In this document: piece by piece, positions 1,307-48,545 of the stretch
How positions within the stretch are numbered: the first letter of the stretch is position 1
Layout of the letters: each line of letters opens with the position of its first letter
From: an uncultured Oscillospiraceae bacterium
GTDB taxonomy: Bacteria > Bacillota > Clostridia > Oscillospirales > Acutalibacteraceae
DNA: 64,000 nt
Assembly: GCA_902472305.1 (NCBI GenBank)
Contig: CABRNK010000004.1
Location: forward strand, 15,395-79,394
Direction: 5' to 3'
Translations under genes and position numbers: made by a program
The notes under the pieces: model-generated
What the model saw: only the letters and a program-made list of their open reading frames with translations
Told to the model about the DNA's origin: nothing
Databases searched by the model: none

Positions 1307-2764
1307 ATGATCACCGAAATGAAGAAAATTCCAATCACGGAGGAGAGCCGTCCCTTTGCCACGGCGCTGAAGGTCTGCCCGCTGGAGACGCTCGGTTACG
1401 TGGAGGAGGAGTTTTTCCAGACGGGCACGGCCAACGTCTACCGGGAGGGCGAAGGCGCCCCCGTGGCAGAGATCGCCGACGCGCCGTACACCACCCGCCT
1501 TTTGGTCCGCCGGCCGCGCGACCCGGAGAAATTCAGCGGCAACGTCGTGATTGAGATCCTAAACGCCTCGGCGATGATGGATATCGACCGCATCTGGGTC
1601 AACACATGGCGGTATTTTACCCGGCACGGCGATATTTACATCGGCATCACCAGCAAGGGGCATGTTGTGGATGCGCTCAAGGGCTGCGACCCGGCGCGCT
1701 ATGCGGCGATCAACTGGGCGAACCCGGCGCCGGAGCGCGTTCCCAGCGAGGCTGTGCGCAGCAGCCGGTTCGGCTTTTTGCCGCAGTACGAGCAGGGGCT
1801 TTTTTGGGATATGCTCATTGACCTCGCAAAGCTGCTGCGGACGGATTCGCCGCTGAACCCGATCGCGGGCTTCGGCAGGGCGTGGCTCTATCTTTCGGGG
1901 TGGTCCCAGTCGGGCGCTTATCTCTCCCGCGTCGTCAACAGTTTTGCCTATCTGCCGGAAAACTGCGGGGCGGGCCCGCTGTTCGACGGCTATCTGAATG
2001 CCGGAAGCGGCGCCTCCAACGCGCCGCTGAATGCCTACGAGCCGTTTGGCACGCCGTTCCAAAGAGGGCGGCCCGCCGCAAGCCTGCTCTGCACGAAGGA
2101 GCCGTGCATCGCGGTGAATACGGAGAGCGAAAACCGCAGCACCTTCTGGTACGGCGATTTCGACGAGCCGAGCTGCAAATTCCGCACGTGGCAGATCCCA
2201 TGCTCGAGCCACGACAGCCTCTATAACCTCGTGACATACTACCGCCTCGGCTACGGCACGGAGAGCCTGCACCGCCTCGGCCGCGAGCTGGAATGGGAGG
2301 GATATCAGGGCGAGGCGCTGGACACGCCGTATTATTTCGTGTTCCATGCGGCCTTTGAGGCGCTTTACCACTGGGTGCGCGAGGGGATTCCCGCGCCGCA
2401 TGCGCCGAAGATCGAGACGGAAATGACATATGCCGCCACAGACCCCACCGGCGTTCAGGCAGCGAACCGGACGGATTCATTCGGCAACGCGCTGGGCGGC
2501 ATCCGCTATCCCGCGGCAGACTGCCCCACGTCGGTCTGCCAGAGCTACACCGTCCGCGAGGACGGCGGCCTCCAGCAGATGTTTGGCACGGAGTACCCGT
2601 TCCCGCCGGAGAAGCTGAAGGCGGTGTACGGCGATCTCGGCCATTACCGCGCGCTGGCGGAAAAGAGCGCCGACAACGCGGTCGCCCACGGCTGGATTTT
2701 GGCGGACGACCGGGATGAGCTGGTCCGCATTGCGGTCGAGACGGCCGCACGCCGCGGCCTGTAA
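1307..2764 (+). CDS. conserved hypothetical protein, alpha/beta-hydrolase-like fold (paralog of 7755..9218)
   Basis: ATG at 1307 (MITEMKKIPITEE...) preceded by GGAGAGGAAGAGGA. About 486 aa. Motifs RRPRDPEKFSGNVVIEILNA and LSGWSQSG. Strong paralogy to the ORF at 7755. Confidence 0.7.
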   Translation: MITEMKKIPITEESRPFATALKVCPLETLGYVEEEFFQTGTANVYREGEGAPVAEIADAPYTTRLLVRRPRDPEKFSGNVVIEILNASAMMDIDRIWVNTWRYFTRHGDIYIGITSKGHVVDALKGCDPARYAAINWANPAPERVPSEAVRSSRFGFLPQYEQGLFWDMLIDLAKLLRTDSPLNPIAGFGRAWLYLSGWSQSGAYLSRVVNSFAYLPENCGAGPLFDGYLNAGSGASNAPLNAYEPFGTPFQRGRPAASLLCTKEPCIAVNTESENRSTFWYGDFDEPSCKFRTWQIPCSSHDSLYNLVTYYRLGYGTESLHRLGRELEWEGYQGEALDTPYYFVFHAAFEALYHWVREGIPAPHAPKIETEMTYAATDPTGVQAANRTDSFGNALGGIRYPAADCPTSVCQSYTVREDGGLQQMFGTEYPFPPEKLKAVYGDLGHYRALAEKSADNAVAHGWILADDRDELVRIAVETAARRGL

Positions 2765-2780
2765 CCGCAGAAAACTGAAA

Positions 2781-2819
2781 AACGGCTCTCAGCCTAGCGG
2801 GCTGGGAACCGTTTTTTTG
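2781..2819. terminator. bidirectional intrinsic terminator between convergent genes
   Basis: Imperfect GC hairpin cggctctcagcc..gggctgggaaccg followed by a T7 run. Confidence 0.4.
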
Positions 2820-2885
2820 TTGTATTCGGCAAAGCCGGGGAGCGGTCGCCGCGTGAAGAAGCGGCCCGGCGCGGGAGCTTGCCGG

Positions 2886-3890
2886 TCAGCGCAGGGGCTT
2901 GCCGCCGCGGACGACGAGCTGCGTGCCGATGCGCACATGGCAGCAGGGGCAGCCGTCCTCCTGAATCAGCCGCAGAAGCAGCCGGAGCGCCTCGCGCCCG
3001 CGCGTCTCGGAGCGGATGTCGATGGAGGAAAAAGCGTAAGGCGAGGGGATGCGCCCGCCGAGGTTGTCGAAGCCGATGATCCGAGGGCCCTGCGCCGCGC
3101 CCTGCCGGCGTTCGGCCAGCAGGGGCAAGAGCGAAAAGGCAAGATAATCGGAGGAGAAGAAAAGCGCGTCGGGCGCATCGGCCGCTTCCTCGAGCTTTCG
3201 GCAAAAGACCTCGGCTTCCTGATGCGCGGGGAGATAGAGCCAGAGGGGCTGCAGCCCCTTTTCCTCCATCCAGCGCATATAGGCCTCGCGGCGCTCCCGC
3301 TCATTCCGGTGCATGTGGCCTCCCTGCGGCTCGACGAAGGCGGGGCGGCGGCAGCCATGCGCGTACAGCCAGTCCAGCCCCTGCATCATACCGCCCTCGT
3401 TGTCGATGGAGACGGAGCAGACCGGCTGGCCGGGGAGCGCGTGGTCCACCAGCACCACGGGGATATGCAGGGCAAACAGCGCGTCAAGCTGCCCGGCGGA
3501 GAGCAGCGGGGCGTTGAACAGAAGGACGCCCGCGCAGTCCCGCAGTGCCTCGGTGTTCAGCGGGTTGTCCGCGTCCCAGTATTGAATGGTCGTCACGCAG
3601 TTTTCCCGCGAGGCCAGATCCAGAATGCCGCGCTGCAAATCCATGAAAATATAATCGGTTCCCGATGTGCCGCTGAACAGGGGACCCGCGGCGGTTCTGC
3701 AAAACAGGAGGAGGATCCGGGTGGCGGGCGCAGCGCTTTTTTTCACCTGATAGCCGGCGGCCTCCACCTCGGTCAGGATTCGGCTCCGGGTCTCGTCCGA
3801 AAGGCCGGGCCTGCCGTTGATGGCGAGCGAGACGGCGGAAACGCTTACGCCGAGCCGCTCCGCCAGCTCCTTTAATGTGAGTTTTCCCAT
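2886..3890 (-). CDS. LacI family transcriptional regulator
   Basis: N-terminal HTH MGKLTLKELAERLGVSVSAVSLAING, then a periplasmic-binding-fold body; 334 aa. Confidence 0.85.
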   Translation of the reverse strand: MGKLTLKELAERLGVSVSAVSLAINGRPGLSDETRSRILTEVEAAGYQVKKSAAPATRILLLFCRTAAGPLFSGTSGTDYIFMDLQRGILDLASRENCVTTIQYWDADNPLNTEALRDCAGVLLFNAPLLSAGQLDALFALHIPVVLVDHALPGQPVCSVSIDNEGGMMQGLDWLYAHGCRRPAFVEPQGGHMHRNERERREAYMRWMEEKGLQPLWLYLPAHQEAEVFCRKLEEAADAPDALFFSSDYLAFSLLPLLAERRQGAAQGPRIIGFDNLGGRIPSPYAFSSIDIRSETRGREALRLLLRLIQEDGCPCCHVRIGTQLVVRGGKPLR

Positions 3891-11794: not shown

Positions 11795-12622
11795 ATGGGG
11801 CTTCAGGCAAAATCGTTCGCCCTGCGCCGGGACATTCTCGACATGGTGTACCGGGCCAAAACGGGGCACATCGGCGGGGACTTCAGCGTGTGCGATATTT
11901 TGAACGTGCTCTATAACGCGGTGATGGATATCACGCCGGAGAACTTCCCATCTCAGGACCGCGACCATTTTATTTTGAGCAAGGGACATTCCGTGGAGGC
12001 GTTGTACGCGGTGCTCTGCGACAAGGGCTTTTTCCCGCGGGAGGATCTTCTGACCGTGTCGCAGTTTCAGAGCCGCTACATCGGCCACCCGAACAATAAG
12101 GTGAACGGCATCGAGATGAACTCCGGCTCGCTCGGGCACGGGCTGTCCGTCGGCGTGGGCATGGCGCTCGCCATGCAGCGGGACGGCAAAAAGCACCGCG
12201 TTTACGTCGTCATGGGTGACGGCGAGCTGGCGGAGGGCTCCGTGTGGGAGGGCGCGATGGCGGCGGGCCACTACAGGCTCTCGAACCTCTGCGCTGTGGT
12301 GGACCGCAACGGCCTGCAGATCTCCGGCACGACGGAGGCGGTCATGCGGCAGGAAAGCCAGCGCGACCGTTGGAAATCGTTCGGCTGGAACGTACTTTCC
12401 GCTGCCGGAAACGATACGGCGGCGCTGAAGGCCGCATTTGACGCGGCGAAGCAGTGCACGGATAAGCCGACGGTCATTCTGGCCGAGACGGTAAAGGGCT
12501 GCGGCGTATCGTTCATGGAAAATCAGGCGGGCTGGCACCACCGCGTTCCGACCGAAACGGAATACGCGGCCGCGGCGGCCGAGCTTGAGGTGAAGAGAAA
12601 GGAGGCGGAGAGCCGTGAATAA
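11795..12622 (+). CDS. transketolase, N-terminal subunit (split TK)
   Basis: TGHIGGDFS, GHPN, GSLGHGLSVGVGMALA TPP-binding motifs; 275 aa. Confidence 0.85.
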   Translation: MGLQAKSFALRRDILDMVYRAKTGHIGGDFSVCDILNVLYNAVMDITPENFPSQDRDHFILSKGHSVEALYAVLCDKGFFPREDLLTVSQFQSRYIGHPNNKVNGIEMNSGSLGHGLSVGVGMALAMQRDGKKHRVYVVMGDGELAEGSVWEGAMAAGHYRLSNLCAVVDRNGLQISGTTEAVMRQESQRDRWKSFGWNVLSAAGNDTAALKAAFDAAKQCTDKPTVILAETVKGCGVSFMENQAGWHHRVPTETEYAAAAAELEVKRKEAESRE

Positions 12623-13550
12623 AATTGCAAACCGGCAGGTGATCTGCGAGGTGCTTTTGGAGCACGCGGCGAAGGATCGGGACATCACGGTGCTGTGCAG
12701 CGACTCCCGCGGCTCCGCCTCGCTCGCGCCGTTCGCCGAAAAATTCCCGACGCAGTTTGTGGAGATGGGCATTGCGGAGCAGAGCCTTGTTTCCACGGCG
12801 GCAGGCATGGCGCGGGTCGGCAAAAAAGCGTTTGCGGCTTCGCCGGCCTGCTTCCTCTCCACGCGGAGCATGGAGCAGGTGAAGGTGGACGTGGCCTATT
12901 CCCATACCAACGTCAAGCTGATCGGTATTTCCGGCGGCATCAGCTACGGGGCGCTGGGCATGACGCACCACAGTGCGCAGGATATCGCGGCGCTCGCGTC
13001 GATTCCGGGCCTGCGGGTGTACCTGCCGAGCGACCGGCATCTGACCCGCGCGCTCATGGAGGCGCTTTTGAAGGATTCTGAGCCGGCCTATATCCGCACG
13101 GGGCGCAACCCTGTGGAGGACGTGTACACGGCGGAGACACTGGATTTCGCGCTCGACCGGGCAGTCACCGTCCGCGAGGGCGGCGACGTCACGATCATCG
13201 CGTGCGGCGAGCTGGTGCGCCCTGCCTTGGATGCCGCTGCGCTGCTCGAAAAGCGCGGGATCTCCGCGCGCGTGCTCGATATGTACTGCGTCAAGCCCAT
13301 CGACCGCGCGGCGGTTCTGCGGGCCGCGGCGGAGACAAAGGGCATCGTCACGGTGGAGGAGCACGGCAAAATCGGCGGCATGGGCGCGATGGTCAGCCAG
13401 ATCACGGCGGAAAGCTGCCCGGTGCGCGTGAAAAATCTCGCTTTGCCGGATGAGCCGGCGGTCGCGGGCAGCTCGCAGGAGGTGTTCGCGTGGTACGGGC
13501 TGGACGCCGCGCACATTGCGGACGCGGCGGCGGAGCTGGTGGCGCTATGA
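12615..13550 (+). CDS. transketolase, C-terminal subunit (split TK)
   Basis: GTG start overlapping the upstream stop. Pyrimidine-binding / C-terminal TK domain motifs (EQSLVSTAAGMA). 311 aa. Confidence 0.85.
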   Translation: MNKIANRQVICEVLLEHAAKDRDITVLCSDSRGSASLAPFAEKFPTQFVEMGIAEQSLVSTAAGMARVGKKAFAASPACFLSTRSMEQVKVDVAYSHTNVKLIGISGGISYGALGMTHHSAQDIAALASIPGLRVYLPSDRHLTRALMEALLKDSEPAYIRTGRNPVEDVYTAETLDFALDRAVTVREGGDVTIIACGELVRPALDAAALLEKRGISARVLDMYCVKPIDRAAVLRAAAETKGIVTVEEHGKIGGMGAMVSQITAESCPVRVKNLALPDEPAVAGSSQEVFAWYGLDAAHIADAAAELVAL

Positions 13551-37907: not shown

Positions 37908-38071
37908 TGATAAGAACCCAAAAGTCCTTTCACGAATAGGCCGAAAATAAGCAAAGGCTGCCCCAAATAGGAAACTATTTTTAAATGTTCACAAATTATT
38001 TACAAATGCAGTTTGTACAACCAGCCGAAAGGCGTCGAGCCTAACTTGGTTCGACGCCTTTCGATAAATGG
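37908..38071. repeat. direct repeat copy 1 (about 164 bp, roughly 90 percent identical to 39305..39469) containing a conserved hairpin
   Basis: Aligned by eye. Both copies start tgataagaac and end cgataaatgg. Shared hairpin gaaaggcgtcga(g/a)cctaacttg(g/a)ttcgacgcctttc. Confidence 0.85.
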
Positions 38072-38389
38072 GGGGACAAAATAGATACCAACTATAGGCG
38101 CGGGCACAAGACCATAGAAAAAATAAAGCCCCGCACGCGGACTGCGTGTCGAGGCTATCGACTGGGCTTACGCGACAAAAAAAGATACCCGTTGAAAATG
38201 AAAAATTCCGGGGCCGTTTTCGCATTATAATTTATTCATTTTTATTTTCTTGGGGTCCCCTTTTTGTAAAAGAGGACGATCCTGAAAAAACAGTTTAAAT
38301 GCTGGAATTTATGACATGAAAATAGCCGACGGTCTCACCATGCAACAGAGCTGTCGCGGCAGATCCGCACTTAAACCAGATTAGGAGAA

Positions 38390-38641
38390 TCAATTCTCAA
38401 ATTGCGCTTTAATCCGCTCATTTACCCGAGCGTCCATCCCATCCGGCAGCAGCACTAGATCTTCTTCCAAAATGGAAATCTCTGCGATGTCATCTTTTTC
38501 ACCGTATTGCGGAAAGTTTACTAACCAGTATCCCTCCGTGCGTTGTTCCAGACAAATCCAACCCTGCATCCCTTTGTGCACACCATCTTGTGCGTACTTC
38601 TCTTTTTCAACTATCACTTCAACACAATCCATCATTTTCAT
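38390..38641 (-). CDS. small acidic protein (82 aa), candidate immunity/antitoxin partner
   Basis: MKMMDCVEVIVEKEKYAQDG... The ATG lies 1-2 nt after the TAA of the upstream gene. The RBS GGAGGT is embedded in the upstream gene's last codons (Y-G-G-K). Coordinates are within 1 nt. Confidence 0.45.
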   Translation of the reverse strand: MKMMDCVEVIVEKEKYAQDGVHKGMQGWICLEQRTEGYWLVNFPQYGEKDDIAEISILEEDLVLLPDGMDARVNERIKAQFEN

Positions 38642-38642
38642 T

Positions 38643-39284
38643 TTATTTACCTCCATAAGGTGTCGTAAGTTTGAGGAGTCCATTTGGGTAAACCATCCAA
38701 CCGGATAAAAACGAAACCATTTTACCGCTGCCTTTTCTGGGTATTTCAATCCGAATGCTGATTCGCTGTCCATCTTTATTTAATTTTCCAAGCGTATAAT
38801 CTCCTGCAATATACTTTTCAAGAGCCTGCTTTTCTATTTCTGCTTGCAGCCACCGCGCGTCGGCAACCGTATAGCCCCAGCTTTCAAAGGCCCTGTTCTT
38901 TCCATGCTGATAAACATTGTCAGTGTCAAATAAGTAGGGATCAAATTTGCTGTAATCGCTGTATGTCGTTGCATCCATTAAAACCACCGTGTAATCAATT
39001 GGGTCTAAAGTACAGTGACAGAAAGGATGATGCGGCCACGTGGGCGACTTGCTTTTCAGAAACCAGCAGCCGTCCAGCTTTAAGCATACATCACAATGGT
39101 TTTTTCCTTCTGGATGGTGTGTCCACCGAATCCAGTCTGGCGTGGCAGATTTCTGAACAAAGAGGAAAACGGGCCATCGTTTGTGATAACTGCCGTTCAC
39201 TTCTGGCAGAGCTGGCAAAGATTTCGATACGGGTGATAGCTTATCATATGGCAAAACGTAACCACATGCTTTCTGGATATACAT
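38643..39284 (-). CDS. Phage Mu F / SPP1 gp7-like domain protein with unknown C-terminal domain (candidate MuF-type polymorphic toxin)
   Basis: AGGAGAT RBS then ATG MYIQKA. Motifs HCDVCLKLDGCWF and WPHHPFCHCTLDP resemble the MuF family R..H..LDG.vf and pp.HPNCRCT blocks. About 110 aa C-terminal region with no recognisable family. Confidence 0.5.
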   Translation of the reverse strand: MYIQKACGYVLPYDKLSPVSKSLPALPEVNGSYHKRWPVFLFVQKSATPDWIRWTHHPEGKNHCDVCLKLDGCWFLKSKSPTWPHHPFCHCTLDPIDYTVVLMDATTYSDYSKFDPYLFDTDNVYQHGKNRAFESWGYTVADARWLQAEIEKQALEKYIAGDYTLGKLNKDGQRISIRIEIPRKGSGKMVSFLSGWMVYPNGLLKLTTPYGGK

Positions 39285-39304
39285 TTAAACCATCTCCTAT
39301 TGAA

Positions 39305-39469
39305 TGATAAGAACAAAAAAGTCCTTTCACGAATAGGCTGAAAACAAGCAAAGGTTGCCCCAAAATAGGAAACTATTTTTAAATATTCACAAATTATTTA
39401 CAAATACAGTTTGTACAACCAGCCGAAAGGCGTCGAACCTAACTTGATTCGACGCCTTTCGATAAATGG
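39305..39469. repeat. direct repeat copy 2; its last 3 nt are the CCA end of tRNA-Gln
   Basis: See copy 1. Confidence 0.85.
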
Positions 39470-39541
39470 CTGGGCTGGCGGGATTCGAACCCACGGGTGA
39501 CGGAGTCAAAGTCCGTTGCCTTACCGCTTGGCGACAGCCCA
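39467..39541 (-). tRNA. tRNA-Gln (TTG)
   Basis: U1-A72 acceptor TGGGCTG/CAGCCCA, D-arm GCCAAGCGGTAAGGC, anticodon loop CTTTGAC, T-loop GGTTCGAATCC, CCA encoded. Confidence 0.75.
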
Positions 39542-39574
39542 ATATGCAGTTTTCTCTAGCAGGAGACTGCAAAA

Positions 39575-39602
39575 GTATAGCACATTTTTGCCCGATAGTC
39601 AA
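39575..39602 (-). promoter_or_regulatory. sigma-A promoter for tRNA-Gln (TTGACT-17-TATACT on minus strand)
   Basis: Reverse complement reads TTGACTatcgggcaaaaatgtgcTATACT. Confidence 0.5.
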
Positions 39603-40971: not shown

Positions 40972-41316
40972 AGTGGTTTCATCCCTTCAATCTTTTTCTA
41001 AATTGTAGCGCAGGGCTCGGCGGTGTGTCAAGCGCGAATGTGAAAGCAATGTGTTAAAGGGCGGTAAAAAACGGGCGGCGCGCAAGGAAGGCCGTGCCTG
41101 TGCGAAAATTTCGTAAACTTGAGACGAATTTTACGCGATGCGGGCGGAGCATAACGAAAAATAGAGAAACATAAAGGGTGCGAAATACGCACAGAACTTC
41201 GAAGAAAAAACCAAAGACAAATGGATGAAATATCAATAGAAATAAAGGGATAGGGGAAAATACCACGATAATTCTAAATTGAAAATAAAAAAACAGTGCT
41301 TTTTGATATTTTACTC

Positions 41317-41346
41317 TTGACAAGCGCGGAGAAACATGCGTATAAT
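41317..41346 (+). promoter_or_regulatory. consensus promoter TTGACA-18-TATAAT in the long AT-rich leader of the 41457 operon
   Basis: Read directly. Confidence 0.5.
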
Positions 41347-41456
41347 TATGGCGTAATAAATGAGTAGCAAAAGTAAACAAATAGAGAGATCGAGAAAATG
41401 CGGCAAATGGCTCTGCGGAGCTTGCATATTACATTCAAAGGGAAGGAAGTAAGAAA

Positions 41457-42761
41457 ATGAAGCGAAGAATCATGGCGGCCCTGCTGGCTGCGGCGATGCT
41501 GCTTTCTGTGGCCGCGTGCAGCAGCGGCGGCGAAAGCAGCGCGGGCGGAGAGGCGCAGGAAAGCACCGGCGGCGCGGCGGGAACAACGGAGAGCACAGCC
41601 GGCGAGGGTGCGGCGGACGGCGACACGGGCCTCACGTACGACGGCGAGGAGGTTGTGCTCAAGGAGCAGATCGTCCCCGAGTTCGAAAAGCAGTTCCCGA
41701 ACATCCACGTCAAGCTGGTCCGAATGCCGTATGACGGCCTGAAGCAGCAGGTGATTCAGGGCGTTTCCAGCGGAACAGCACCGGATTTGATGCGCATGGA
41801 CATCATCTGGGTCACAGAGTTCGCGAAGCTCGGCGCGCTGGTGCCTGTGGACGACCTGCCCGGTTTTGCCGAAATGAAGGAAACGCTGTTTGAGGGGCCG
41901 TTGAGCACCAATTACTACGAGGGCAAGTATTACGGCCTGCCGCTGAACACGAACTGCCTCAGCGGCGCGTGGAGCAAGACGATGCTCGATCAGCTCGGCC
42001 TGACGGAGGTCCCCAAAACGTACGACGACATGCTCGCGCTCAAGGATCAGCTAAAGGAGGGCCAGTACCTCTTTGCGACGGAGGACACGAACACGTGGGC
42101 GACCGCGCCGCTGTTCTATTCGCTGGGCGGCACGTACACGAACGAGGACTACACGAAGGCGAGCGGCTACCTGAACGGCGAGGCGAGCGTCAAGGCGCTG
42201 GAAACGATCGTACAGTGGTATGACGAGGGCATCCTCGGGCCGGCGACGATGGCCGGTAAGCCGGACGTTTCGAACGGTGTTTTCCGCGGCGAATATCTCC
42301 TGACGTATCAGGGCCCGTGGTTCTACACGAACAACAAGGAGGAGGACATCGCCAAGGTGCAGGCCGGCCTGCTTCCGGCGGGCGACGCCGGTTCGATGAC
42401 GGTTGTCGGCGGCGAGGACCTCTGCATGTTCACGAGCGGCAAGAATCAGGAGGCCGCGTGGGTATTCGCGCGCTTCCTGATGGGCGAGTTTGCCCAAAAG
42501 GCACAGGCGCTGGGCGGCGGCCGCCTGATCCCGACCGTGAAGGAGTTTGCGAATTCTGAGGAGGTCATGGCCGTCGAGAACATGGACGTCTACGTCGAGC
42601 AGCTCGAAAATGCAGTTTCGAGAACACCGCACCCGGCTTGGGAAAAGATGTCCGATAAGATCATGAAGCTTTTCCAGAGCTGCCTGCGCCACGAGGTGGA
42701 GCCGAGAGCTGCGCTCGATAAGCTCGCGCCGGAAATCGACGCGCTGCTGGCGGAGAAATAA
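41457..42761 (+). CDS. sugar ABC transporter substrate-binding lipoprotein (CUT1 family)
   Basis: MKRRIMAALLAAAMLLSVAACSSGG lipobox; 434 aa. Confidence 0.85.
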   Translation: MKRRIMAALLAAAMLLSVAACSSGGESSAGGEAQESTGGAAGTTESTAGEGAADGDTGLTYDGEEVVLKEQIVPEFEKQFPNIHVKLVRMPYDGLKQQVIQGVSSGTAPDLMRMDIIWVTEFAKLGALVPVDDLPGFAEMKETLFEGPLSTNYYEGKYYGLPLNTNCLSGAWSKTMLDQLGLTEVPKTYDDMLALKDQLKEGQYLFATEDTNTWATAPLFYSLGGTYTNEDYTKASGYLNGEASVKALETIVQWYDEGILGPATMAGKPDVSNGVFRGEYLLTYQGPWFYTNNKEEDIAKVQAGLLPAGDAGSMTVVGGEDLCMFTSGKNQEAAWVFARFLMGEFAQKAQALGGGRLIPTVKEFANSEEVMAVENMDVYVEQLENAVSRTPHPAWEKMSDKIMKLFQSCLRHEVEPRAALDKLAPEIDALLAEK

Positions 42762-42838
42762 TGCGGAAATAAAGGCGTGGCCGGCGCTTTCCGGACACGC
42801 CTTTATTTTTCAAGCGGGATAATAAGGAGGAATGTCAC

Positions 42839-43777
42839 GTGAAAAAGGACGCGCTTTCGGTGCGGTTCCGAAGAGGGCTGCGTCAGTGGGCGGCGGTGCT
42901 GCCGTTTATCTCGGTGGGGCTGATGCTGTTTGTGGTCTTTGTGCTGTACCCGCAGATCAAGAATATCTACATCGCCTTTACGGATTACAGCATCATGCCC
43001 GGCGCAGAGACGCCCTTTGTGTTTTTCGATAATTTCAAGCGGGCCTTTGAGGGCATGTTCGAGCAGGGAACGGACGCCTATTATTTCTGGATCTCGTTTC
43101 GGAACAACCTGCTCGCCGTTCTGGTCACCGTGCCGGGGCAGCTCATCCTCGGCCTGCTGGTCGCGGTGATGATCCACAACATCCGGTTTGGAAAAAACGC
43201 ATATAAGATCATGTTCTACATCGCCGTGATCTGCGACTGGGTCGTCGTGGCCAATATTTTCGATTACATCTTCCAGCCGGATAACGGCAGCCTCGTCAAC
43301 TACGTGCTGCTTAAGCTGCACATCATCTCCGAGCCGATCGCGTGGCTTCAGGAAACGTGGAGCGGCAATCTCGTGATCTGGGTGTTCAGCATCTGGAAGG
43401 GCTTCGGCTGGGTCATGATCATCTACACGGCGGCGCTGCAGGGCATTCCGAACGACCTGTACGAGGCCGCGACGATCGACGGCGCTTCCACGATCGATAA
43501 ATTCTTCCACATCACGCTGCCGAGCATCCGTGGCACGACCTTCTATCTTCTGATCAATCTGATCAACGGCGCGATGAACATCTTCATTCAGGTGTTTCTG
43601 CTCACCAAAGGCAACCCGGTCGGCACGACCGACGTCATGATGAACTACATATACACGCGGGCCTTCAATTACTTTGAATTCGGCTATGCGGCGGCCTGCG
43701 GCCTGATGATGGGCGTCTTTGTGTTCACAACGTCGATGTTCCTCAAGCGCTACCTGCGCTACGGGCAGGATCAATGA
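42839..43777 (+). CDS. sugar ABC transporter permease
   Basis: AAGGAGG then GTG; EAATIDGAST signature. Confidence 0.8.
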   Translation: MKKDALSVRFRRGLRQWAAVLPFISVGLMLFVVFVLYPQIKNIYIAFTDYSIMPGAETPFVFFDNFKRAFEGMFEQGTDAYYFWISFRNNLLAVLVTVPGQLILGLLVAVMIHNIRFGKNAYKIMFYIAVICDWVVVANIFDYIFQPDNGSLVNYVLLKLHIISEPIAWLQETWSGNLVIWVFSIWKGFGWVMIIYTAALQGIPNDLYEAATIDGASTIDKFFHITLPSIRGTTFYLLINLINGAMNIFIQVFLLTKGNPVGTTDVMMNYIYTRAFNYFEFGYAAACGLMMGVFVFTTSMFLKRYLRYGQDQ

Positions 43778-43790
43778 GAGGGGGAGAAAC

Positions 43791-44630
43791 ATGAAAAAAG
43801 GAAAAATTATTTCGCAGGCCGTGCTGCATGCGGTTCTGATCGTCCTCGCGGTCATCTGCCTCACGCCGTTTCTCTCCATGGTTTCCTCATCCTTCATGGA
43901 CATCCGCGGCGTTCTGCCGGATGTACCGGTCATTTTCCCAGAAACGCCGCTCTACACGGAAAATTATGTCAAGGTATGGACGGCCAACAACTTTTCGCGG
44001 TATTTTGTGAATACCCTGCTGCTTTCCGCAGGCGGCCTCGTCGTCAACGTGGCGATCTCCATCTCGATGGCGTACAGCTTCTCGCGGTTTAAGTTTCCGG
44101 GAAGGGAGCTTCTCTTCAACGTCTTTCTGCTCACGATGATGGTGCCGGCGCAGCTCGCCCTGATCTCGCAGTACACCGTGCTTAACGGCCTGCATTTGAT
44201 CGACAATTACGCGGGCATCCTGCTGCTGTGGGGCGGCACCTGCGTGGCCGGCAACACGTTTTTCTACCGCGGCTTCTTTGAAAGCGTGCCGCGTGAGCTG
44301 GAGGAGTCGATGTTCCTCGACGGCGCCTCGCGCTTCGGCGTCTTGATCCACTGCATCATCCCGCTCAGCAAGCCGGCGATCGCAACCTCTGCGATCTTCG
44401 CGTTCAACGGCTACTGGGGCGACCTGTTCAACATCCTGACTTTTGTAAAGACCGAGGAAAAGCGGACGCTTTCCGTCGCGCTGCAGCTCTTCCGCGGCCA
44501 GCACACGACCGAATACGGCCTGATGTTCGCGGCCTCCGTGATCGTCGTCATCCCGGTCATCGTGATCTTTATCATCTTCCAAAAGCAGTTCATGAAACAG
44601 GGGCTGATGGAGGGCGCCGTCAAGGGCTGA
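43791..44630 (+). CDS. sugar ABC transporter permease
   Basis: GGGGGAG RBS, ATG MKKGKII; EESMFLDGAS signature. Confidence 0.85.
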   Translation: MKKGKIISQAVLHAVLIVLAVICLTPFLSMVSSSFMDIRGVLPDVPVIFPETPLYTENYVKVWTANNFSRYFVNTLLLSAGGLVVNVAISISMAYSFSRFKFPGRELLFNVFLLTMMVPAQLALISQYTVLNGLHLIDNYAGILLLWGGTCVAGNTFFYRGFFESVPRELEESMFLDGASRFGVLIHCIIPLSKPAIATSAIFAFNGYWGDLFNILTFVKTEEKRTLSVALQLFRGQHTTEYGLMFAASVIVVIPVIVIFIIFQKQFMKQGLMEGAVKG

Positions 44631-44715
44631 CCGGCACGCCCCGCACAAAACAGAAAAACACGCGGCGGCGCCGCGTGAAAATCAAAGCATATTTTCAAAA
44701 TAGGGAGGAAAGAAA

Positions 44716-45486
44716 ATGGCAATCAAGGTAACGGTATGGAACGAATACCTGCACGAGAAGCAGTTTGAGGAGGTGGCGGCGATCTACCCGAAGGGGATTC
44801 ACGGCTGCATCGCGGAGTTTCTCGAAAAGGCGGGGATGGAAACAAAAGCGGCAACGCTCGAGGAGCCGGAGCACGGCCTGACGCAGGAAGTGCTGGAGGA
44901 CACCGACGTGCTGATCTGGTGGGGACACATGGCGCACGAGCGCGTGGCGGACGAGATCGTGGAGCGCGTGCACAAGCGCGTTTTGGACGGCATGGGTCTG
45001 ATCGTGCTGCACTCGGGCCACGCGTCGAAGATTTTTCAGAAAGTCTGCGGGACGAACTCGGGCATGCTCAAGTGGCGCGAGGACGGCGAGAAGGAGATCC
45101 TGTGGGTGGTGGACCCGAGCCATCCGATCGCGGCGGGACTGGATGAAAAGATCATAATCCCGCACGAGGAGATGTACGGCGAGCACTTCAACATCCCGCA
45201 GCCGGACGAGCAGGTGTTCATCAGCTGGTTCGAGGGCGGCGAGGTGTTCCGCAGCGGTTGCTGCTGGCACCGCGGCAAGGGGAAGGTGTTCTACTTCCGC
45301 CCGGGTCACGAGGTATTCCCGATCTACCATCAGGCGGAGATTCAGCAGGTGATCACGAATGCGGTGAAGTGGGCCGCGCCGATCGAGTTCGCAAAGGTTT
45401 CCTACGGCAATCCCCCGCCGGTCGTCGAGATCGCGGCGCAGGCGGCGGGCATCACGGGCAATCCCGGCCTGCACGAGCCGAAGTAA
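44716..45486 (+). CDS. ThuA-like protein (paralog of 24807..25565)
   Basis: [11 protein letters not shown]...[13 protein letters not shown]...[14 protein letters not shown]...[11 protein letters not shown]. Confidence 0.75.
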
Positions 45487-45583
45487 GGGGCGAAACGTGT
45501 TTATTGCAGAGCGGTAAGCGGGCCCGCGGGGCCCAGCGGTTGTATTGAAAAAACGCTTTCAGCGTACAGAAAGGAAAGACAGT

Positions 45584-46672
45584 ATGGAAAAGAAGGTTAT
45601 CCGCATCGGCTCGGTCGGTGTGGGCGCAATCTGGACGGGCGTGCACGAGCCGGGTATCCGGCGCAGCCCCGATCTCGAGCTTGTGGCAATCTGCGACATC
45701 GACGCGGAAAAGCTGCGCGCCGTGGGCGAAAAGTACGGCATCGACGAGGCGCACCGGTTTACGGACTACCGCGACCTGATTCGCTGCCCGGACGTGGACG
45801 CAGTGGACATCTGCACGTCGAATGACGCGCATTTTGAGATCGCGATGGCGGCGGTCGAGGCCGGCAAGCCGTATGACGTGGAAAAGCCGGTCACCATGAC
45901 GGCCGCAGAAGCCGATATACTCGCGAAGGCCACGGCCGAAAAGGGGCTGCCAAACATGGTGTGCTTCTCCTACCGCTTCAAGGCCGCGGCGCGCTGCGCA
46001 CGCGAGCTGATCGAGCAGGGGAAAATCGGCCGGGTATACCACGTCGATATGCAGTATTTTCAGGCTTGGGGCCTGCCGCGCTGCAATACGCCGCGCGTGT
46101 GGCGCTTCGTAAAGTCGCGCACCGGCTCGGGCGCCATGGGCGATCTGGGCTGCCACGCGCTCGATCTCGTCCGTTTCGTCGTGGGCGGGGATTACACGCG
46201 CGTGGTCGGGCATACGGGCACGTATGTCACGGAGCGCAAGCGGCTGGACGGTACGGGCATGGGCCCCGTGGACGTCGACGACTTCTGCAACTACATGGCG
46301 GACATGGAGGGCGGCGTTTCCGCGAGCTTCCAGATCACGCGCTTCGGCTACGGCCGCGGCAACTACCAGCGCATGGAGATCTACGGCAGCGAGGGCGCAA
46401 TCGTCTATACGCTGGATGCGGAGCCGGGCCGCGAGGACGAGCTCGAGGTCTGCGCCGGCGACGTGTATGCCGACGCGCACACCTTCGTGAAGCTGCCGAT
46501 TCCCGAGCACTGCCGCAGCGATCAGATGCAGTCGTTTGCCGATATCATCAACGGCAGCGCGGACGGCAAGGCCGCGACGATCGCCGACGGCCGCTCGAAC
46601 CAGCGCGTGCTGGATGCGATCCTGCGCTCCGCACAGGAGGGGCGCTGGCTGGCGGTTCCAAAGGGCGAGTAA
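45584..46672 (+). CDS. Gfo/Idh/MocA family oxidoreductase (ThuB-like)
   Basis: AAAGGAAAG RBS, MEKKVIRIGSVGVGAIW Rossmann N-terminus. Confidence 0.8.
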   Translation: MEKKVIRIGSVGVGAIWTGVHEPGIRRSPDLELVAICDIDAEKLRAVGEKYGIDEAHRFTDYRDLIRCPDVDAVDICTSNDAHFEIAMAAVEAGKPYDVEKPVTMTAAEADILAKATAEKGLPNMVCFSYRFKAAARCARELIEQGKIGRVYHVDMQYFQAWGLPRCNTPRVWRFVKSRTGSGAMGDLGCHALDLVRFVVGGDYTRVVGHTGTYVTERKRLDGTGMGPVDVDDFCNYMADMEGGVSASFQITRFGYGRGNYQRMEIYGSEGAIVYTLDAEPGREDELEVCAGDVYADAHTFVKLPIPEHCRSDQMQSFADIINGSADGKAATIADGRSNQRVLDAILRSAQEGRWLAVPKGE

Positions 46673-46885
46673 AGTGCCCGGCGCTCAAAACGGCCCCCGC
46701 GCGGCGCGCGGAAACTGAATAAACCGCGGGATGCTTCTGCAAGCGCTTTCACCGTATCGGATTCGGCCTGTAAAGCGCGGCGGGAGCATTCTTTTTGCCT
46801 GTGCGCCCCGGTTGCATTTGACAAGGGAAAGCAGTGCGGGTATAATAAATTCAGATTTATGTTGTCGATCGGAAGGAGGTGCTGT

Positions 46886-47899
46886 ATGGCGAAAAAAGTG
46901 ACGGTCCGCGATATTGCCAAAGCGGCGGGCGTATCGGTCGCCACGGTGTCGCGTGTTTTGAACAGCCAGTCGGGCTTTTCACCCGAAACGGAGCGCCTCG
47001 TGCAGGAAACGGCCGGGCGGATGGGCTACCGTATTCCGGAGCGCAAGGCGCAGAGCCGCGAGACCGAGGCGATCGCGCTTGTCATCCCGGCCGTAAACGA
47101 GTATTTCAGCGGCTCCCTGACGCGCAGCGTCGAGAATGCGGCCAGAAAGCGCGGCTACGTCGTGATCCTCTGCAATGCCGGGTGCGACGCGATGTACGGC
47201 GAGGAATTCGTCGGGCTTTTGAAGAAAAAGCTCGTCAAGGGCATCGTCGCGTGCAGCATCCCGCCGGATTCGGCGCTGCTCCGTGTGATCTGGGAGGCGA
47301 AGCTGCCCTGTGTCCTGATCGACAGCGTATCCTACGAATACACTTTTCCCTATGTGAAGATCGACGATTTTCAGGGGATGTACGCGGCGACGAAGTTTCT
47401 TCTGGACCGCGGCCACCGGCGCATCGCGATTCTTTCCGGCGCGATGGAGGATCAGGTGGCGGGCGGCCCGCGCATGGAGGGGTACCGGCAGGCTCTGCGA
47501 GACGCCGGCATCGCGCCGAGCGCTCAGCTCGAGGCGTTCGCGGGCGATTTCAGCTATGAGAGCGGCCGGAAGGCGTTTATGGAGCTGCTTTCGCGCGAAG
47601 CCGATTTCACCGGCCTCGTGACGTGCAGCGACGTGGTCGCGGCTGCCGCCATCACGGCGGCAGCGAAGCGCGGCATCCGCGTGCCGCAGGAGCTTTCGGT
47701 GATCGGGTTTGACAATTCACAGATCGCCGCGCTGCTGAACCCGCCGCTGACCTCTGCGGCGCAGCCGTATCAGGAGATGGGCGAGATGGCGGTGCACCTT
47801 CTGAAGAAGGTCATCGAATACGAGGGCCTCGTGGAAAGCCGCGTTTTCCCCGTGCACATTGTGGAGCGGGAAACGACCGCGCCCCCGCCCGAAAAATAG
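46886..47899 (+). CDS. LacI family transcriptional regulator
   Basis: GGAAGGAGGT RBS; MAKKVTVRDIAKAAGVSVATVSRVLN HTH. Confidence 0.85.
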   Translation: MAKKVTVRDIAKAAGVSVATVSRVLNSQSGFSPETERLVQETAGRMGYRIPERKAQSRETEAIALVIPAVNEYFSGSLTRSVENAARKRGYVVILCNAGCDAMYGEEFVGLLKKKLVKGIVACSIPPDSALLRVIWEAKLPCVLIDSVSYEYTFPYVKIDDFQGMYAATKFLLDRGHRRIAILSGAMEDQVAGGPRMEGYRQALRDAGIAPSAQLEAFAGDFSYESGRKAFMELLSREADFTGLVTCSDVVAAAAITAAAKRGIRVPQELSVIGFDNSQIAALLNPPLTSAAQPYQEMGEMAVHLLKKVIEYEGLVESRVFPVHIVERETTAPPPEK

Positions 47900-47912
47900 A
47901 AAATAGGCGCAA

Positions 47913-47950
47913 AAAAAGCAAGAGGAGAAAAACTCCCCTTGCTTTTTTGT
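47913..47950. terminator. bidirectional terminator between convergent genes
   Basis: gcaagaggag...ctccccttgc hairpin followed by a T6 run. Confidence 0.4.
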
Positions 47951-48220
47951 TTAGAGCAGGTTCATCCGCACGGCGATCGAGAACAGGAAGATGCCGAGCA
48001 TGACCGCGCCGAGCACGACGAGACCGATCCACCAGCCGGGGGTGCGGCGCACCGTGCCGGCCGGGACGCTTTTCGGGATGACGGCCGGCTGCGTCTGCTG
48101 CAGCTTTGTGGGACCGGGCTCCACGCGCGGCGCCGCGTATTGCAGGTCAAACTCCGCGCCGCAGTCCGGGCAGCGCACAACGGCATCGTCGATCAGCTTT
48201 CCGCATTTTGGGCACATCAT
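47951..48220 (-). CDS. zinc-ribbon plus single-TM small protein (tandem paralog 1)
   Basis: MMCPKCGKLIDDAVVRCPDCGAEF, then a proline/basic linker, then WWIGLVVLGAVMLGIFLF TM helix. Confidence 0.55.
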   Translation of the reverse strand: MMCPKCGKLIDDAVVRCPDCGAEFDLQYAAPRVEPGPTKLQQTQPAVIPKSVPAGTVRRTPGWWIGLVVLGAVMLGIFLFSIAVRMNLL

Positions 48221-48266
48221 AAGAGCTCACCCCTTTCGGGAACAGACGAGCGCGCAGGATCGCGTT

Positions 48267-48545
48267 TTAACCGGCGAACAGGCCGGACTGTGCGAGCACG
48301 GCAAACACGATGGCGCCGAGCATAATGGCGCCGAGCGCAATGGCGGCAATCCACCAAATTGCGGTGCGCCTGCCGCCCCGTCCGACCGGGACTGTTTTCA
48401 GGATGACGTTTGTCGGCGTAAAGGAGGACTTCGTTCTGCCGCCGGTCATCATGACGGGCGAATACTGCACGTCCAGCTCCACGCCGCAGTCCGGGCACCG
48501 GACAACGCCCTTTTCGAGGTTCTTTCCGCATTTCGGACACATCAT
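48267..48545 (-). CDS. zinc-ribbon plus single-TM small protein (tandem paralog 2)
   Basis: MMCPKCGKNLEKGVVRCPDCGVEL ... WWIAAIALGAIMLGAIVFAVL. Start taken at MMCPK after an AAAGGAAAGGG RBS. Confidence 0.55.
   Translation of the reverse strand: MMCPKCGKNLEKGVVRCPDCGVELDVQYSPVMMTGGRTKSSFTPTNVILKTVPVGRGGRRTAIWWIAAIALGAIMLGAIVFAVLAQSGLFAG

Follow-up and report, generated by a model that had tools for sequence, protein, structure and literature searches.

A probable MuF-derived toxin-antidote unit stacked behind a tRNA-Gln gene of an uncultured Oscillospiraceae bacterium

MuF polymorphic toxins (PMC5576092; PF04233) combine the end of a MuF domain (H..C..C...LDG..F / PHHP.CHC) with a variable toxin domain and a small immunity gene. 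Proteins in which DUF6883 is fused to the C-terminal side of Phage_Mu_F are known, and the domain has been classed as BECR-Tox3 in a 2026 preprint (bioRxiv 10.64898/2026.08.28.747851). Phage BECR domains have an active-site pattern of a His and a C-terminal Thr/Ser (Iyer et al. 2017, PMC5512222). CdiA-CT Kp342 has the active-site residue set K/Y/H/R/T (PMC9086364); it acts on tRNA-Ile and requires EF-Tu/Ts/GTP. The window analysed here, a stretch of 64 kb from an uncultured Oscillospiraceae bacterium, contains a two-gene cassette that shares with the MuF polymorphic toxins the MuF end, the toxin domain and the small partner gene. In contrast to these toxins, the cassette has no N-terminal part at all and lacks some 60% of the Pfam MuF domain, PF04233 remains below threshold, and the window copy lies outside a prophage. 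The dominant form is also free-standing, with ~183-216 aa and a putative promoter of its own.

Integrative elements that target tRNA genes and their integrase-less derivatives, such as genomic islands, CIME-type elements and tycheposon arrays, insert at the 3' end of the tRNA, stack in co-orientation and are flanked by direct repeats. In integron cassette arrays each small unit carries one cargo and a conserved 3' site. The cassette shares with these systems its location at a tRNA 3' end, a co-oriented stack, direct repeats, small units of one cargo each and a conserved 3' site. It differs in that the small units examined yielded no integrase gene, that the family uses at least 15 different tRNA species, and that the repeat consists of CCA followed by 161 nt of downstream sequence, rather than the tRNA 3' segment of islands and prophages. 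Unlike integrons, the window cassette has neither intI nor an attC-type site (recombinase search, sequence inspection). It is reasonably probable that the locus as a whole is a MuF-derived mobile toxin-antidote unit, stacked behind tRNA-Gln and placed there site-specifically. The insert would then be one unit of a cassette family of phage MuF-type descent. Other loci of the family are numbered with the prefix L.

A coupled gene pair with a predicted RNase domain

The 213-aa reading frame was confirmed (Table 1). An earlier note on this DNA had held its C-terminal domain to be unassignable; residues 110-210 match DUF6883 (PF21814) at 31.2 bits, above the Pfam gathering cut-off of 27 (E 2.9e-7). 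The same profile is matched at E<=1 by 45 of 45 toxin homologues (best E 8.9e-10). Structure prediction of this part, which the note had proposed, yielded a BECR fold in which N-terminal helices lie on a 4-stranded antiparallel sheet, and the AF2 model of the toxin is confident over residues 46-213. Among 45 diverse members T208 is invariant, H127 is kept in at least 90%, and K113, Y117, R174 and R178 are also conserved. As far as sequence can tell, these residues fit both the phage BECR pattern and the Kp342 set. The likeness to PBECR/BECR-Tox3 proteins includes DUF6883 by HMM, the BECR fold and the conserved His and C-terminal Thr, and extends to a small conserved downstream partner and a link to MuF.

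Table 1. Features of the tRNA-Gln locus in window coordinates
Feature	Position	Strand	Basis or remark
Promoter-like site TTGACT-17-TATACT with TG, upstream of tRNA-Gln	39574..39602	-	consensus scan, 10/12 matches
tRNA-Gln(ttg), intact	39467..39541	-	ARAGORN, full cloverleaf; Rfam tRNA 62.1 bits
R1, repeat copy leading the toxin gene	39305..39469	-	pairwise alignment; leader homology to other loci
Predicted toxin gene, 213 aa	38643..39284	-	ORF
Toxin residues 1-45, disordered extension specific to the closest subfamily			
Toxin residues ~50-97, Cys/His-rich MuF-domain remnant	38994-39137	-	
Toxin residues 110-213, DUF6883 / BECR-fold predicted RNase domain	38646-38957	-	
Predicted antidote gene, 83 aa, pI 4.4	38390..38641	-	ORF, one base after toxin stop codon
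Tail of toxin unit, non-coding	38190..38389	-	parts recur in L003, L085
End motif 1, GGTATCTTTTTTTGTCGCGTAAGCCCA, 3' boundary of toxin unit	38163..38189	-	regex and pattern scans
Mini-unit X, ~95 nt	38069..38162	-	hairpin; terminator-like site 38127-38143 (terminator scan); end motif 2
End motif 2, GGTATCTATTTTGTCCCCCCA	38069-38089	-	within mini-unit X
R2, second repeat copy, no gene behind	37908..38071	-	alignment to R1

Judged from the model, the closest structural relatives of the toxin are tRNA-cutting toxins. The BECR tRNases CdiA-CT Kp342/CdiI (6CP9) and CdiA-CT EC3006 (6CP8) differ from it in sequence, with 13-16% identity, and in being delivered by contact-dependent inhibition in Proteobacteria. 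The fold of the toxin makes tRNA, or some other RNA of the translation apparatus, the most likely target of cleavage. When the family profile was searched against PDB sequences, nothing matched at E<=10. The PADLOC defence models matched neither toxin nor antidote, and NCBIfam returned no meaningful match.

The small partner protein is acidic, with 18 D+E versus 9 K+R. Its RBS sits in the last codons of the toxin gene and a single base separates stop from start (GGAGGT AAA TAA A ATG on the minus strand), so that the gene arrangement described in the earlier note stands, but the protein has 83 residues and not 82. The two genes are translationally coupled; the antidote would be made from the toxin mRNA in this way and then neutralise the toxin. 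The structure prediction that had been called for gave an SH3/KOW-like barrel with a C-terminal helix (AF2, pLDDT 72, moderate confidence). In every complete locus examined the antidote gene lies 1-5 nt downstream of the toxin gene, and the pair is present in more than 70 loci with varied flanks, as is expected of type II toxin-antitoxin (TA) systems, in which an adjacent pair is conserved across unrelated contexts. Most likely the 83-aa protein neutralises the toxin by direct binding, as suggested by its linkage, its charge and its orphan or arrayed copies. DUF4926, the partner of BECR-Tox3, was considered as the family of the antidote and dropped, since none of 35 antidote homologues matches its HMM at E<=1. 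The pair differs from BECR-Tox3 with its DUF4926 partner in this respect, and also in its context, which is chromosomal and tRNA-adjacent rather than a neighbourhood of virion proteins.

With type II TA systems of the RelE/ParE superfamily the pair shares an operon of two translationally coupled genes, one for a BECR-type toxin and one for a small acidic protein inhibitor; like them it is also mobile, patchy and AT-rich relative to the host. In contrast to those systems, the toxin gene comes first, the antidote has no recognisable DNA-binding domain (no HTH, RHH or AbrB match), and the toxin, owing to an additional Cys/His domain, is about double the size usual for them. It is highly probable that the two genes are a toxin and its antidote, with toxicity and RNase activity as predicted properties. 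The opposite reading, in which a truncated head-morphogenesis protein has a BECR-like domain that merely binds RNA and the small gene is an unrelated passenger, is very improbable. There is precedent for it in the inactive PBECR domain of the Mu MuF protein (Iyer et al. 2017, PMC5512222), and RNA binding alone has already been proposed for phage Mu gp30. However, the candidate catalytic residues are kept across the 45 diverse members, and the tight, universal linkage to an acidic partner, together with amplification of that partner, are hallmarks of an active toxin.

Phage ancestry and possible roles of the pair

The N-terminal half of the toxin had been reported to resemble the MuF family. 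The HMM check proposed for this gave no match of PF04233 to the window protein at E<=1. The profile appears below threshold in 15 of 45 homologues (best E 0.018), where it covers only positions ~66-110 of 112, and a PHROG head-morphogenesis family matches toxin residues 51-96 (E 6e-4). A Foldseek search against viral structures returned nothing significant, only local matches of 50-60 columns to minor capsid or MuF-like proteins. Since only the end of the profile (~45 positions) is matched, the segment is a MuF remnant and not a MuF domain. The toxin would thus consist of ~45 residues of MuF end, forming a Cys/His-rich knuckle, fused to the BECR-fold RNase domain. The earlier proposal of an orphan MuF-type toxin-immunity cassette holds with respect to the conserved pair, the toxin-like fold and the location outside a prophage, and has to be amended with respect to the MuF domain.

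Membership of the two proteins in a conserved phage head module elsewhere had been named as a ground for refuting the proposal, and one such case was found. Phage contig L160 encodes a 51%-identical pair in the order terminase-portal-[pair]-scaffold-major head, so that the pair occupies the MuF slot. L160 is the single relative in a phage head module; nearly all other copies of the family are chromosomal, and the window copy is not beside a portal gene. One pair in a phage head module therefore fits MuF ancestry and is no argument against a toxin. Descent of the cassette family from phage MuF-type head toxins is supported by these sequence comparisons. The predicted toxin extends a known theme, as a compact and free-standing offshoot of the phage MuF-BECR toxins.

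The family is abundant in gut Clostridia, with 586 toxin clusters at 90% identity. The short architecture is dominant (538 representatives, nearly all <=250 aa), which argues for selection on the free-standing protein. Antidotes are more numerous, with 2484 clusters or ~4:1 over toxin clusters. Tandem (two or three) or orphan antidote copies occur in L004, L085, L162-167 and L176; L162-167 have two antidotes and no toxin, and L176 has one toxin and three antidotes. Truncated or frameshifted toxins stand beside intact antidotes in L085, L132, L140 and L168. The toxin-less arrays suggest that these bacteria accumulate immunity to RNases that phages or neighbours inject, which is of relevance to competition in the gut between phages and hosts and between strains.

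It is possible, though somewhat unlikely, that the cassette is mainly such an immunity store, and not a host poison-antidote pair. The toxin would then be dispensable, or would be used once recombined into a phage muF gene, as for orphan CdiA-CT/Rhs modules. The excess of antidotes, the toxin-less loci and the broken toxins all favour this reading, and packaging and injection have been suggested for MuF toxins (Jamet et al. 2017, PMC5576092). The MuF end kept in the protein might act as a handle for recombination. Against an immunity store, the window has an unbroken toxin frame that comes with an RBS and a start codon of its own, and the dominance of the short form speaks for selection on the toxin itself.

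Repeats, leader modules and tail at tRNA-Gln

Pairwise alignment of the two flanking segments, which had been described as near-identical 164-bp copies, gives 155 identical columns of 165, with nine mismatches and one indel. A chance origin of these 164/165-nt copies, one on each side of the insert, is impossible. BLAST finds two copies and no more in the 64-kb window. GC content is 0.44 in the insert (38072-39304), 0.36 and 0.40 in the repeats and 0.57-0.59 in the flanks, in agreement with the description of an AT-rich insert. ARAGORN and Rfam also bore out that one copy meets the CCA of tRNA-Gln (39467-39469), whose three bases are the first three of R1. The Rfam scan of the locus matched the tRNA alone and no known RNA family in repeat or tail. 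The window neighbours are an ABC transporter (NMT1-type binding protein, permease, ATPase), a Crp-family regulator, a DUF1015 protein and a sugar ABC transporter; as had been noted, no phage structural genes are among them.

The insert is foreign DNA and the repeats are real, but the locus is not a simple insert in duplicated target DNA, as the repeat is a portable module. R1 comprises the CCA, a 38-nt near-perfect palindrome without a T-tract (39424-39461) and ~105 nt (39305-39409) that are homologous to toxin leaders in L003, L086, L169 and L175. It differs by one mismatch from the R copy of a temperate-phage contig (L157), and R2 is more diverged. All four R copies begin at a CCA, and the phage copy is bounded at the same base. 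In L085 and L157, R leads a DUF4417 gene, the cargo being swapped right after the RBS. Between the end of R2 and the stop codon of the convergent ABC ATPase gene there are 16 nt. From its sequence, R2 is interpreted as the leader of a unit without cargo at this locus; its equivalent in L085 drives a DUF4417 gene. That the ~105 toxin-proximal nt constitute a toxin leader behind other tRNAs argues that R2 is not plain chromosomal DNA. The cargo of R2 may have been lost, or may never have been present. A further idea was that the palindrome is the attP of a serine integrase. All four copies, chromosomal ones included, have it intact, and in the chromosomal copies it is therefore not a recombined att site.

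The 318-nt tail between the antidote gene and the left repeat was missed in the earlier note. It contains two copies of a conserved end motif and a mini-unit of ~100 nt. Parts of its segment 38190-38389 are also present in L003 and L085, where they follow the antidote gene or a different cargo. The motif has two matches in the window versus 0.12 expected (regex and pattern scans) and bounds units in L003, L085, L086, L162-167, L174 and L175. Units end with a terminator-like hairpin and ...GTNNCNTAANCCCA, which is not attC-type by sequence inspection. Mini-unit X is 89% identical to L086 1877-1967, a segment directly after tRNA-Arg(ccg), and is also found in L085, L162 and L175. Counts of 9-mers in 35 dereplicated tails from all subfamilies revealed no universal downstream motif; the end motif is therefore subfamily-specific, being confined to the closest subfamily and, as a variant, one other. 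The T-run of the motif is also the U-tract of a terminator, so its conservation may be partly functional and not recombinational.

The locus would thus be a stack of small units, in the minus-strand order tRNA-CCA / R1-toxin-antidote-tail-motif1 / mini-unit X-motif2 / R2. The 164-nt repeats would be the 5' modules (hairpin and leader) of two successive units and not the duplication left by one event. The consensus scan called no promoter inside R, where the best candidate by eye has 8/12 positions. Unless transcription stops at the R1 hairpin, the promoter-like site upstream of tRNA-Gln may serve the cassette as well.

Placement behind tRNA genes across the family

A co-oriented tRNA gene ends within 500 bp upstream in 11 of 40 loci, versus a base rate of 0.27%, and seven further loci (L110-112, L115, L120, L135 and L144) carry tRNA 3' fragments. 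Contexts examined after this count are all behind a tRNA too. Taken together, the tRNA-adjacent members follow the 3' ends of 15 or more tRNA isoacceptors directly and in the same orientation. A 1.15-kb unit, 97% identical, stands behind tRNA-Leu(gag) in L108 and behind tRNA-Pro(ggg) in L109, with unrelated flanks. The two strains of L086 and L162 have flanks that are 99.2% identical, and their difference lies exactly from the tRNA CCA to the end motif. CCA-starting repeats that are 85-94% identical flank inserted DNA in three loci: the window (155/165), L108 (48 nt) and L162 (136 nt). Several members, L091, L099 and L130 among them, have neither a tRNA nor a tRNA fragment anywhere near.

These flanking repeats, found independently in three loci, are what would be expected of a Campbell-type crossover, the picture implicit in the earlier note. 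A circle with one copy of the segment downstream of tRNA-Gln and the cassette would have recombined, by a single crossover, with the chromosomal copy and duplicated the 164 nt, with no dedicated recombinase. No recombinase gene was detected in the small units examined. R1 agrees with the copy in the phage contig and R2 has diverged, the pattern that an incoming copy next to a resident one would show. Nevertheless, such a crossover is unlikely. The leader homology of the toxin-proximal part of the repeat behind other tRNAs speaks against it, as does the near-identical unit of L109, which stands behind another tRNA and has no flanking repeat. In many loci the left boundary lies exactly at the CCA, beyond what homology explains, and R with the same boundary is present in a phage contig too.

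The phage contig L157, in which R adjoins two large serine recombinase genes, also raises the question of whether the window holds the remains of a prophage or integrative element at tRNA-Gln, L157-like or an island, of which the toxin-antidote pair and a piece of leader are left. Toxin-antidote pairs resist deletion, and the tRNA association would merely show where such elements land. In L085, R-DUF4417 and then recombinase pseudogene fragments directly follow a window-like array. Fragments of tRNA 3' ends, such as integrase-mediated insertion typically leaves, are present in L110-112, L115, L135, L137 and L144, of which L115, L137 and L144 are distant family members. Decay of a larger element is nonetheless quite improbable, given that relatives are encoded in only 4 of 2.9 million viral contigs and that in most long loci the cassette is directly between housekeeping genes. 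The 1.15-kb unit with identical boundaries at two tRNAs is not expected of random decay, and the window repeat shares the CCA alone with the tRNA, with no tRNA 3' segment as in classical att sites.

The preferred explanation, a family of small units that are placed at, and exchanged between, positions right after the tRNA CCA, raises the matter of the placing agent. The window unit of 1.4 kb holds two genes, neither an integrase or recombinase. The L157 recombinases, used as tblastn queries, and a motif scan both failed to reveal a recombinase in the 64-kb window; a large serine recombinase is absent and a tyrosine-recombinase motif is not obvious. No recombinase genes were detected in the small units examined, the units of other loci being judged by size or called genes. 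The proposed insertion mechanism therefore comes without a candidate enzyme, and another agent would place the units. This is the weakest step of the explanation: a trans-acting, site-specific mechanism may use the CCA-terminated end motif, and a site-specific mechanism of insertion can be proposed only tentatively from these boundaries. Hairpins near the unit ends and a constant 3' target recall the transposition of single-stranded DNA by IS200/IS605-like elements. This route was rejected, as the hairpins at the left ends (R, X, Y, Z, W) differ in sequence and the units have no linked TnpA.

A still more doubtful possibility is that these are integrase-less mobile units of an undescribed kind, which home after the CCA of many tRNAs and stack as integron-like arrays. 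A unit would start with a hairpin and end with a terminator and a conserved ~12-nt CCA-ended tail, which would mimic the tRNA 3' end and recreate the target for the next unit. The tRNA would anchor a cassette platform served by a trans-acting enzyme, with toxin-immunity pairs, DUF4417 genes and empty ~100-nt mini-units as cargo, and units would be exchanged with temperate phages. The placement is the more unusual point of the locus: small units, with no recombinase gene detected in those examined, lie exactly behind many different tRNA genes, with identical boundaries, a recreated CCA-ended junction and content that is swapped between near-identical strains. A dedicated mechanism, if true, would be a new route of gene-cassette mobility and possibly a tool for site-specific insertion at a universally conserved target.

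An empty site, with one repeat and no insert, had been suggested as a sign to look for in relatives. None was found among 80 loci in a genome scan anchored on the neighbouring DUF1015 protein, and in none of these does tRNA-Gln, R or the cassette follow the DUF1015 gene. The closest genome in the scan, Anaeromassilibacillus senegalensis (86% amino acid identity in the neighbouring gene), is without the tRNA at the corresponding place; the synteny ends at 39670. At tRNA-Pro(ggg), an empty site would have the tRNA followed directly by AAAAATCGCTGAAGCATTGACGCTTCAGCG.

The gene pair and its phage ancestry

Beside tRNA-Gln, the window harbors a probable toxin gene and a probable antidote gene encoding proteins of 213 and 83 aa. 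The C-terminal domain of the 213-aa protein, which the earlier note had called unassignable, is DUF6883 (residues 110-210, above the Pfam gathering score), and 45 of 45 homologues match DUF6883 at E<=1. The earlier resemblance to the MuF family (PF04233, Phage_Mu_F) does not hold at the level of a domain. The 213-aa protein has no Phage_Mu_F match in Pfam at E<=1, matches in 15 of the 45 homologues are sub-threshold (best E 0.018), and residues 51-96 align to the final ~50 positions of the PHROGs 'head morphogenesis' profile (E 6e-4). Since these matches are confined to the profile end, the HC..CL.LDGC.F and PHHP.CHC blocks correspond only to the last part of the MuF domain.

Among 1.84 billion representatives, HMMER (exhaustive scan) revealed 538 relatives, nearly all <=250 aa; a long protein with the domain at the C-terminus was found once among the best 150, so that the short form is the rule. 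Relatives are encoded by 4 of 2.9 million viral contigs. One locus, L160, is clearly phage, with the order terminase, portal, 182-aa homologue and antidote, scaffold, major head, tail. The L160 pair, which has its own TTGACA/TATAAT promoter, occupies exactly the MuF/gp7 slot of the head module, indicating that the window copy descends from a phage head-module toxin and is now an escaped orphan. The 'MuF' label is valid for the window toxin only as ancestry, for which the sub-threshold matches and the L160 slot both argue. Residence of the pair in a phage head module elsewhere, which the earlier note had set against its reading, was seen in this one case; the window copy is orphan and chromosomal. 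Its neighbors are ordinary chromosomal genes (ABC transporter, Crp-type regulator, DUF1015 protein, sugar transporter), in agreement with the reported absence of phage structural genes nearby.

Residues K113, Y117, H127, K129, R174, R178 and T208 are conserved in the family. By sequence, they appear to fit both the His plus C-terminal Thr/Ser pattern of phage BECR domains (PMC5512222) and the K/Y/H/R/T set of Kp342, an RNase that cuts uncharged tRNA-Ile (PMC9086364). A 2026 preprint independently equated DUF6883 with the 'BECR-Tox3' RNase family, fused to Phage_Mu_F and partnered with DUF4926 (bioRxiv 10.64898/2026.08.28.747851). RNase activity is predicted for the 213-aa protein, most likely on tRNA or another RNA of the translation machinery. 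The partner was not recognised as DUF4926, with a match in 0/35 members.

The partner is acidic (pI 4.4) and is predicted (pLDDT 72) to form an SH3/KOW-like barrel followed by a C-terminal helix. Its gene lies directly after the toxin gene in all complete loci examined, and its family is four times larger than that of the toxin (2484 versus 586 clusters). Two or three tandem partner copies occur in L004, L085 and L176; in L176 (598-2049) one toxin gene is followed by three antidote genes behind a tRNA-Arg/His/Gln cluster. L162-167 carry two partner copies next to an 85-nt toxin stump (L162:6001-6549). This linkage, larger family, and tandem and stump-side copies are typical of immunity or antitoxin genes. 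Homology, fold and gene linkage together give good support to the candidate toxin-immunity cassette. The gene pair was described correctly in its 213-aa protein, its tight spacing (1 base) and the downstream RBS inside the final codons of the upstream gene; the partner has 83 aa, not 82.

Repeats and units at tRNA-Gln

Features of the window locus and segment order of two comparison arrays
Feature	Location	Strand	Segment order
Toxin ORF, 213 aa	38643-39284	minus	
Partner ORF, 83 aa	38390-38641	minus	
R1, repeat copy leading the toxin gene	39305-39469	minus	
R2, second repeat copy	37908-38071	minus	
Mini-unit X	38069-38162		
End motifs	38163-38189; 38069-38089		
tRNA-Gln(ttg)	39467-39541		
L086 array			tRNA / X / Y / Z-toxin-antidote / W
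L162 array			tRNA / W' / Y / X'-toxin stump-antidote-antidote / W

The two copies of the repeat, R, are identical in 155 of 165 alignment columns, and no third copy was found in the 64-kb window. They flank a 1233-nt insert of 44% GC (repeats 36% and 40%, flanks 57-59%). The tRNA is intact, and R1, read on the minus strand, opens with its CCA. These observations bear out the earlier description of near-identical repeats around an AT-rich insert, one reaching the tRNA CCA. The single insert then pictured does not fit: rather than one insertion bracketed by a duplicated target, the locus is a series of segments, which read on the minus strand as tRNA-CCA; R1, toxin, antidote, tail and GGTATCTTTTTTTGTCGCGTAAGCCCA; X (~95 nt, terminal sequence GGTATCTATTTTGTCCCCCCA); R2; and the ABC gene end. 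The end-motif core occurs twice in the window versus 0.12 expected, and its ATCTTTTTTGT-N7-12-CCA form was found in cassette loci only and invariably lay on the cassette strand. Mini-unit X shares 89% identity with the segment directly 3' of tRNA-Arg(ccg) in L086 and recurs in L085, L162 and L175. L086 and L162 are one chromosomal locus in different strains, with flanks 99.2% identical and differing arrays; the exact limits of the first difference are the tRNA CCA and the end-motif start. CCA-starting repeats also flank arrays in L108 (48 nt, 94%) and L162 (136 nt, 85%).

Four copies of R are available (R1, R2, L085 and the temperate-phage contig L157). All begin right after CCA, preceded variously by tRNA-Gln, end motif or phage sequence, and R1 differs from the L157 copy by one base. 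In L157, which also encodes a tail endopeptidase, tail fibre, holin and amidase, R adjoins genes for two large serine recombinases, and the gene that it drives encodes a DUF4417 protein (11997-12878; 293 aa). L085 contains a window-like array, then R-DUF4417 (1757-3151) and recombinase fragments; its DUF4417 product has 464 aa, with a long His/Asp-rich C-terminal extension. Cargo switches directly after the RBS AGGAGATG, and the toxin-proximal ~105 nt of R are homologous to the toxin leader at loci behind other tRNAs. The CCA start in four contexts, the cargo swap and the leader homology indicate that R is a portable 5' module, hairpin plus leader. For R2, the best reading is a leader belonging to another unit that has no cargo in the window.

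A strong promoter-like site lies upstream of tRNA-Gln; within R, no promoter was called and the hairpin has no T-tract. X contains a terminator-like site. Judged from sequence features, co-transcription of the cassette with tRNA-Gln is possible. Other cassette subfamilies have clear promoters of their own, with palindromic operators.

Further candidate units were observed in other arrays. Downstream of tRNA-Ser(cga), a 187-aa ORF without a family match (L169:6325-6888) follows an end motif right behind the antidote gene and may be another cargo unit. In L004 (4600-5619), a short ORF lies directly behind tRNA-Pro(cgg), ahead of the DUF6883 cassette; it weakly matches PF04233 (positions 66-110 of 112, E 0.0011), and the next gene is of the Barstar family. 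The two genes look like another short-MuF toxin, paired within this array with an immunity gene of a different type.

Of the genomes found, that of Anaeromassilibacillus senegalensis is closest, with 86% aa identity in the DUF1015 protein. Relative to it (L005), the window carries an additional ~7 kb that separates the DUF1015 gene from the next syntenic block (41032-48292), including a sugar ABC transporter and an AT-rich stretch (41050-41450, 38% GC). A 70-nt tRNA-Gly(tcc) called there by ARAGORN (42342-42411, plus strand), inside a solute-binding-protein ORF (41457-42761), lacks Rfam support at the gathering score and is likely a false positive.

Placement behind tRNA genes

In each of the three long loci analysed first, the pair is co-oriented with a tRNA gene and lies just 3' of it: tRNA-Gly(ccc), tRNA-Arg(acg) and tRNA-Pro(cgg). 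Among the 40 loci with >=500 bp of upstream sequence, 11 have a co-oriented tRNA ending <=500 bp upstream and another 2 have one at up to 1.6 kb. In 818 kb from related genomes, the base rate was 0.27%. Seven 'negative' loci (L110-112, L115, L120, L135, L144) have tRNA 3' fragments at the equivalent place, and all contexts examined afterwards are behind tRNA (Arg-ccg, Ser-cga, Leu-cag, an incomplete Arg, and a cluster of Arg, His and Gln). The tRNA genes concerned represent at least 15 isoacceptors. One 1.15-kb unit (97% identity) is shared by L108, where it follows tRNA-Leu(gag), and L109-L112, where it follows tRNA-Pro(ggg). The flanks are unrelated; the unit extends from the tRNA end to CACATCTTTTTTGTAGTCTCTTGAC, followed by the native terminator. 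This recurring placement, in units without a detected recombinase gene, is the part worth follow-up.

The precise CCA boundaries, the presence of one unit at two tRNA genes, the strain-level swaps, and a motif whose terminal CCA restores a tRNA-like junction suggest that a site-specific process, with factors supplied in trans, would insert the units at the tRNA 3' end. The insertion mechanism is the weak point of this account. No linked recombinase gene was found in the small units examined, and no empty tRNA-Gln site was found. The end motif is subfamily-specific, and its T-run doubles as a terminator tract. Campbell-type crossover could account for part of the picture, as could decay of larger tRNA-inserted elements.

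In L110-L112, tRNA-Pro(ggg) is reduced to its 3' 45 nt in front of the cassette (e.g. L110:2745-2790), and the sequence upstream is unrelated to L109. This arrangement looks like the insertion of another, larger element into that tRNA gene, suggesting that such loci are hot spots for more than one type of element. A unit of 1.42 kb, shared at 98% identity by two contexts (L115:458-1874 and L144:3555-4957), begins with a ~45-nt tRNA 3' fragment and terminates in inverted T-arm/acceptor-like sequence (GATTTGAACCCTCA), and is thus bounded by inverted tRNA-end-like repeats.
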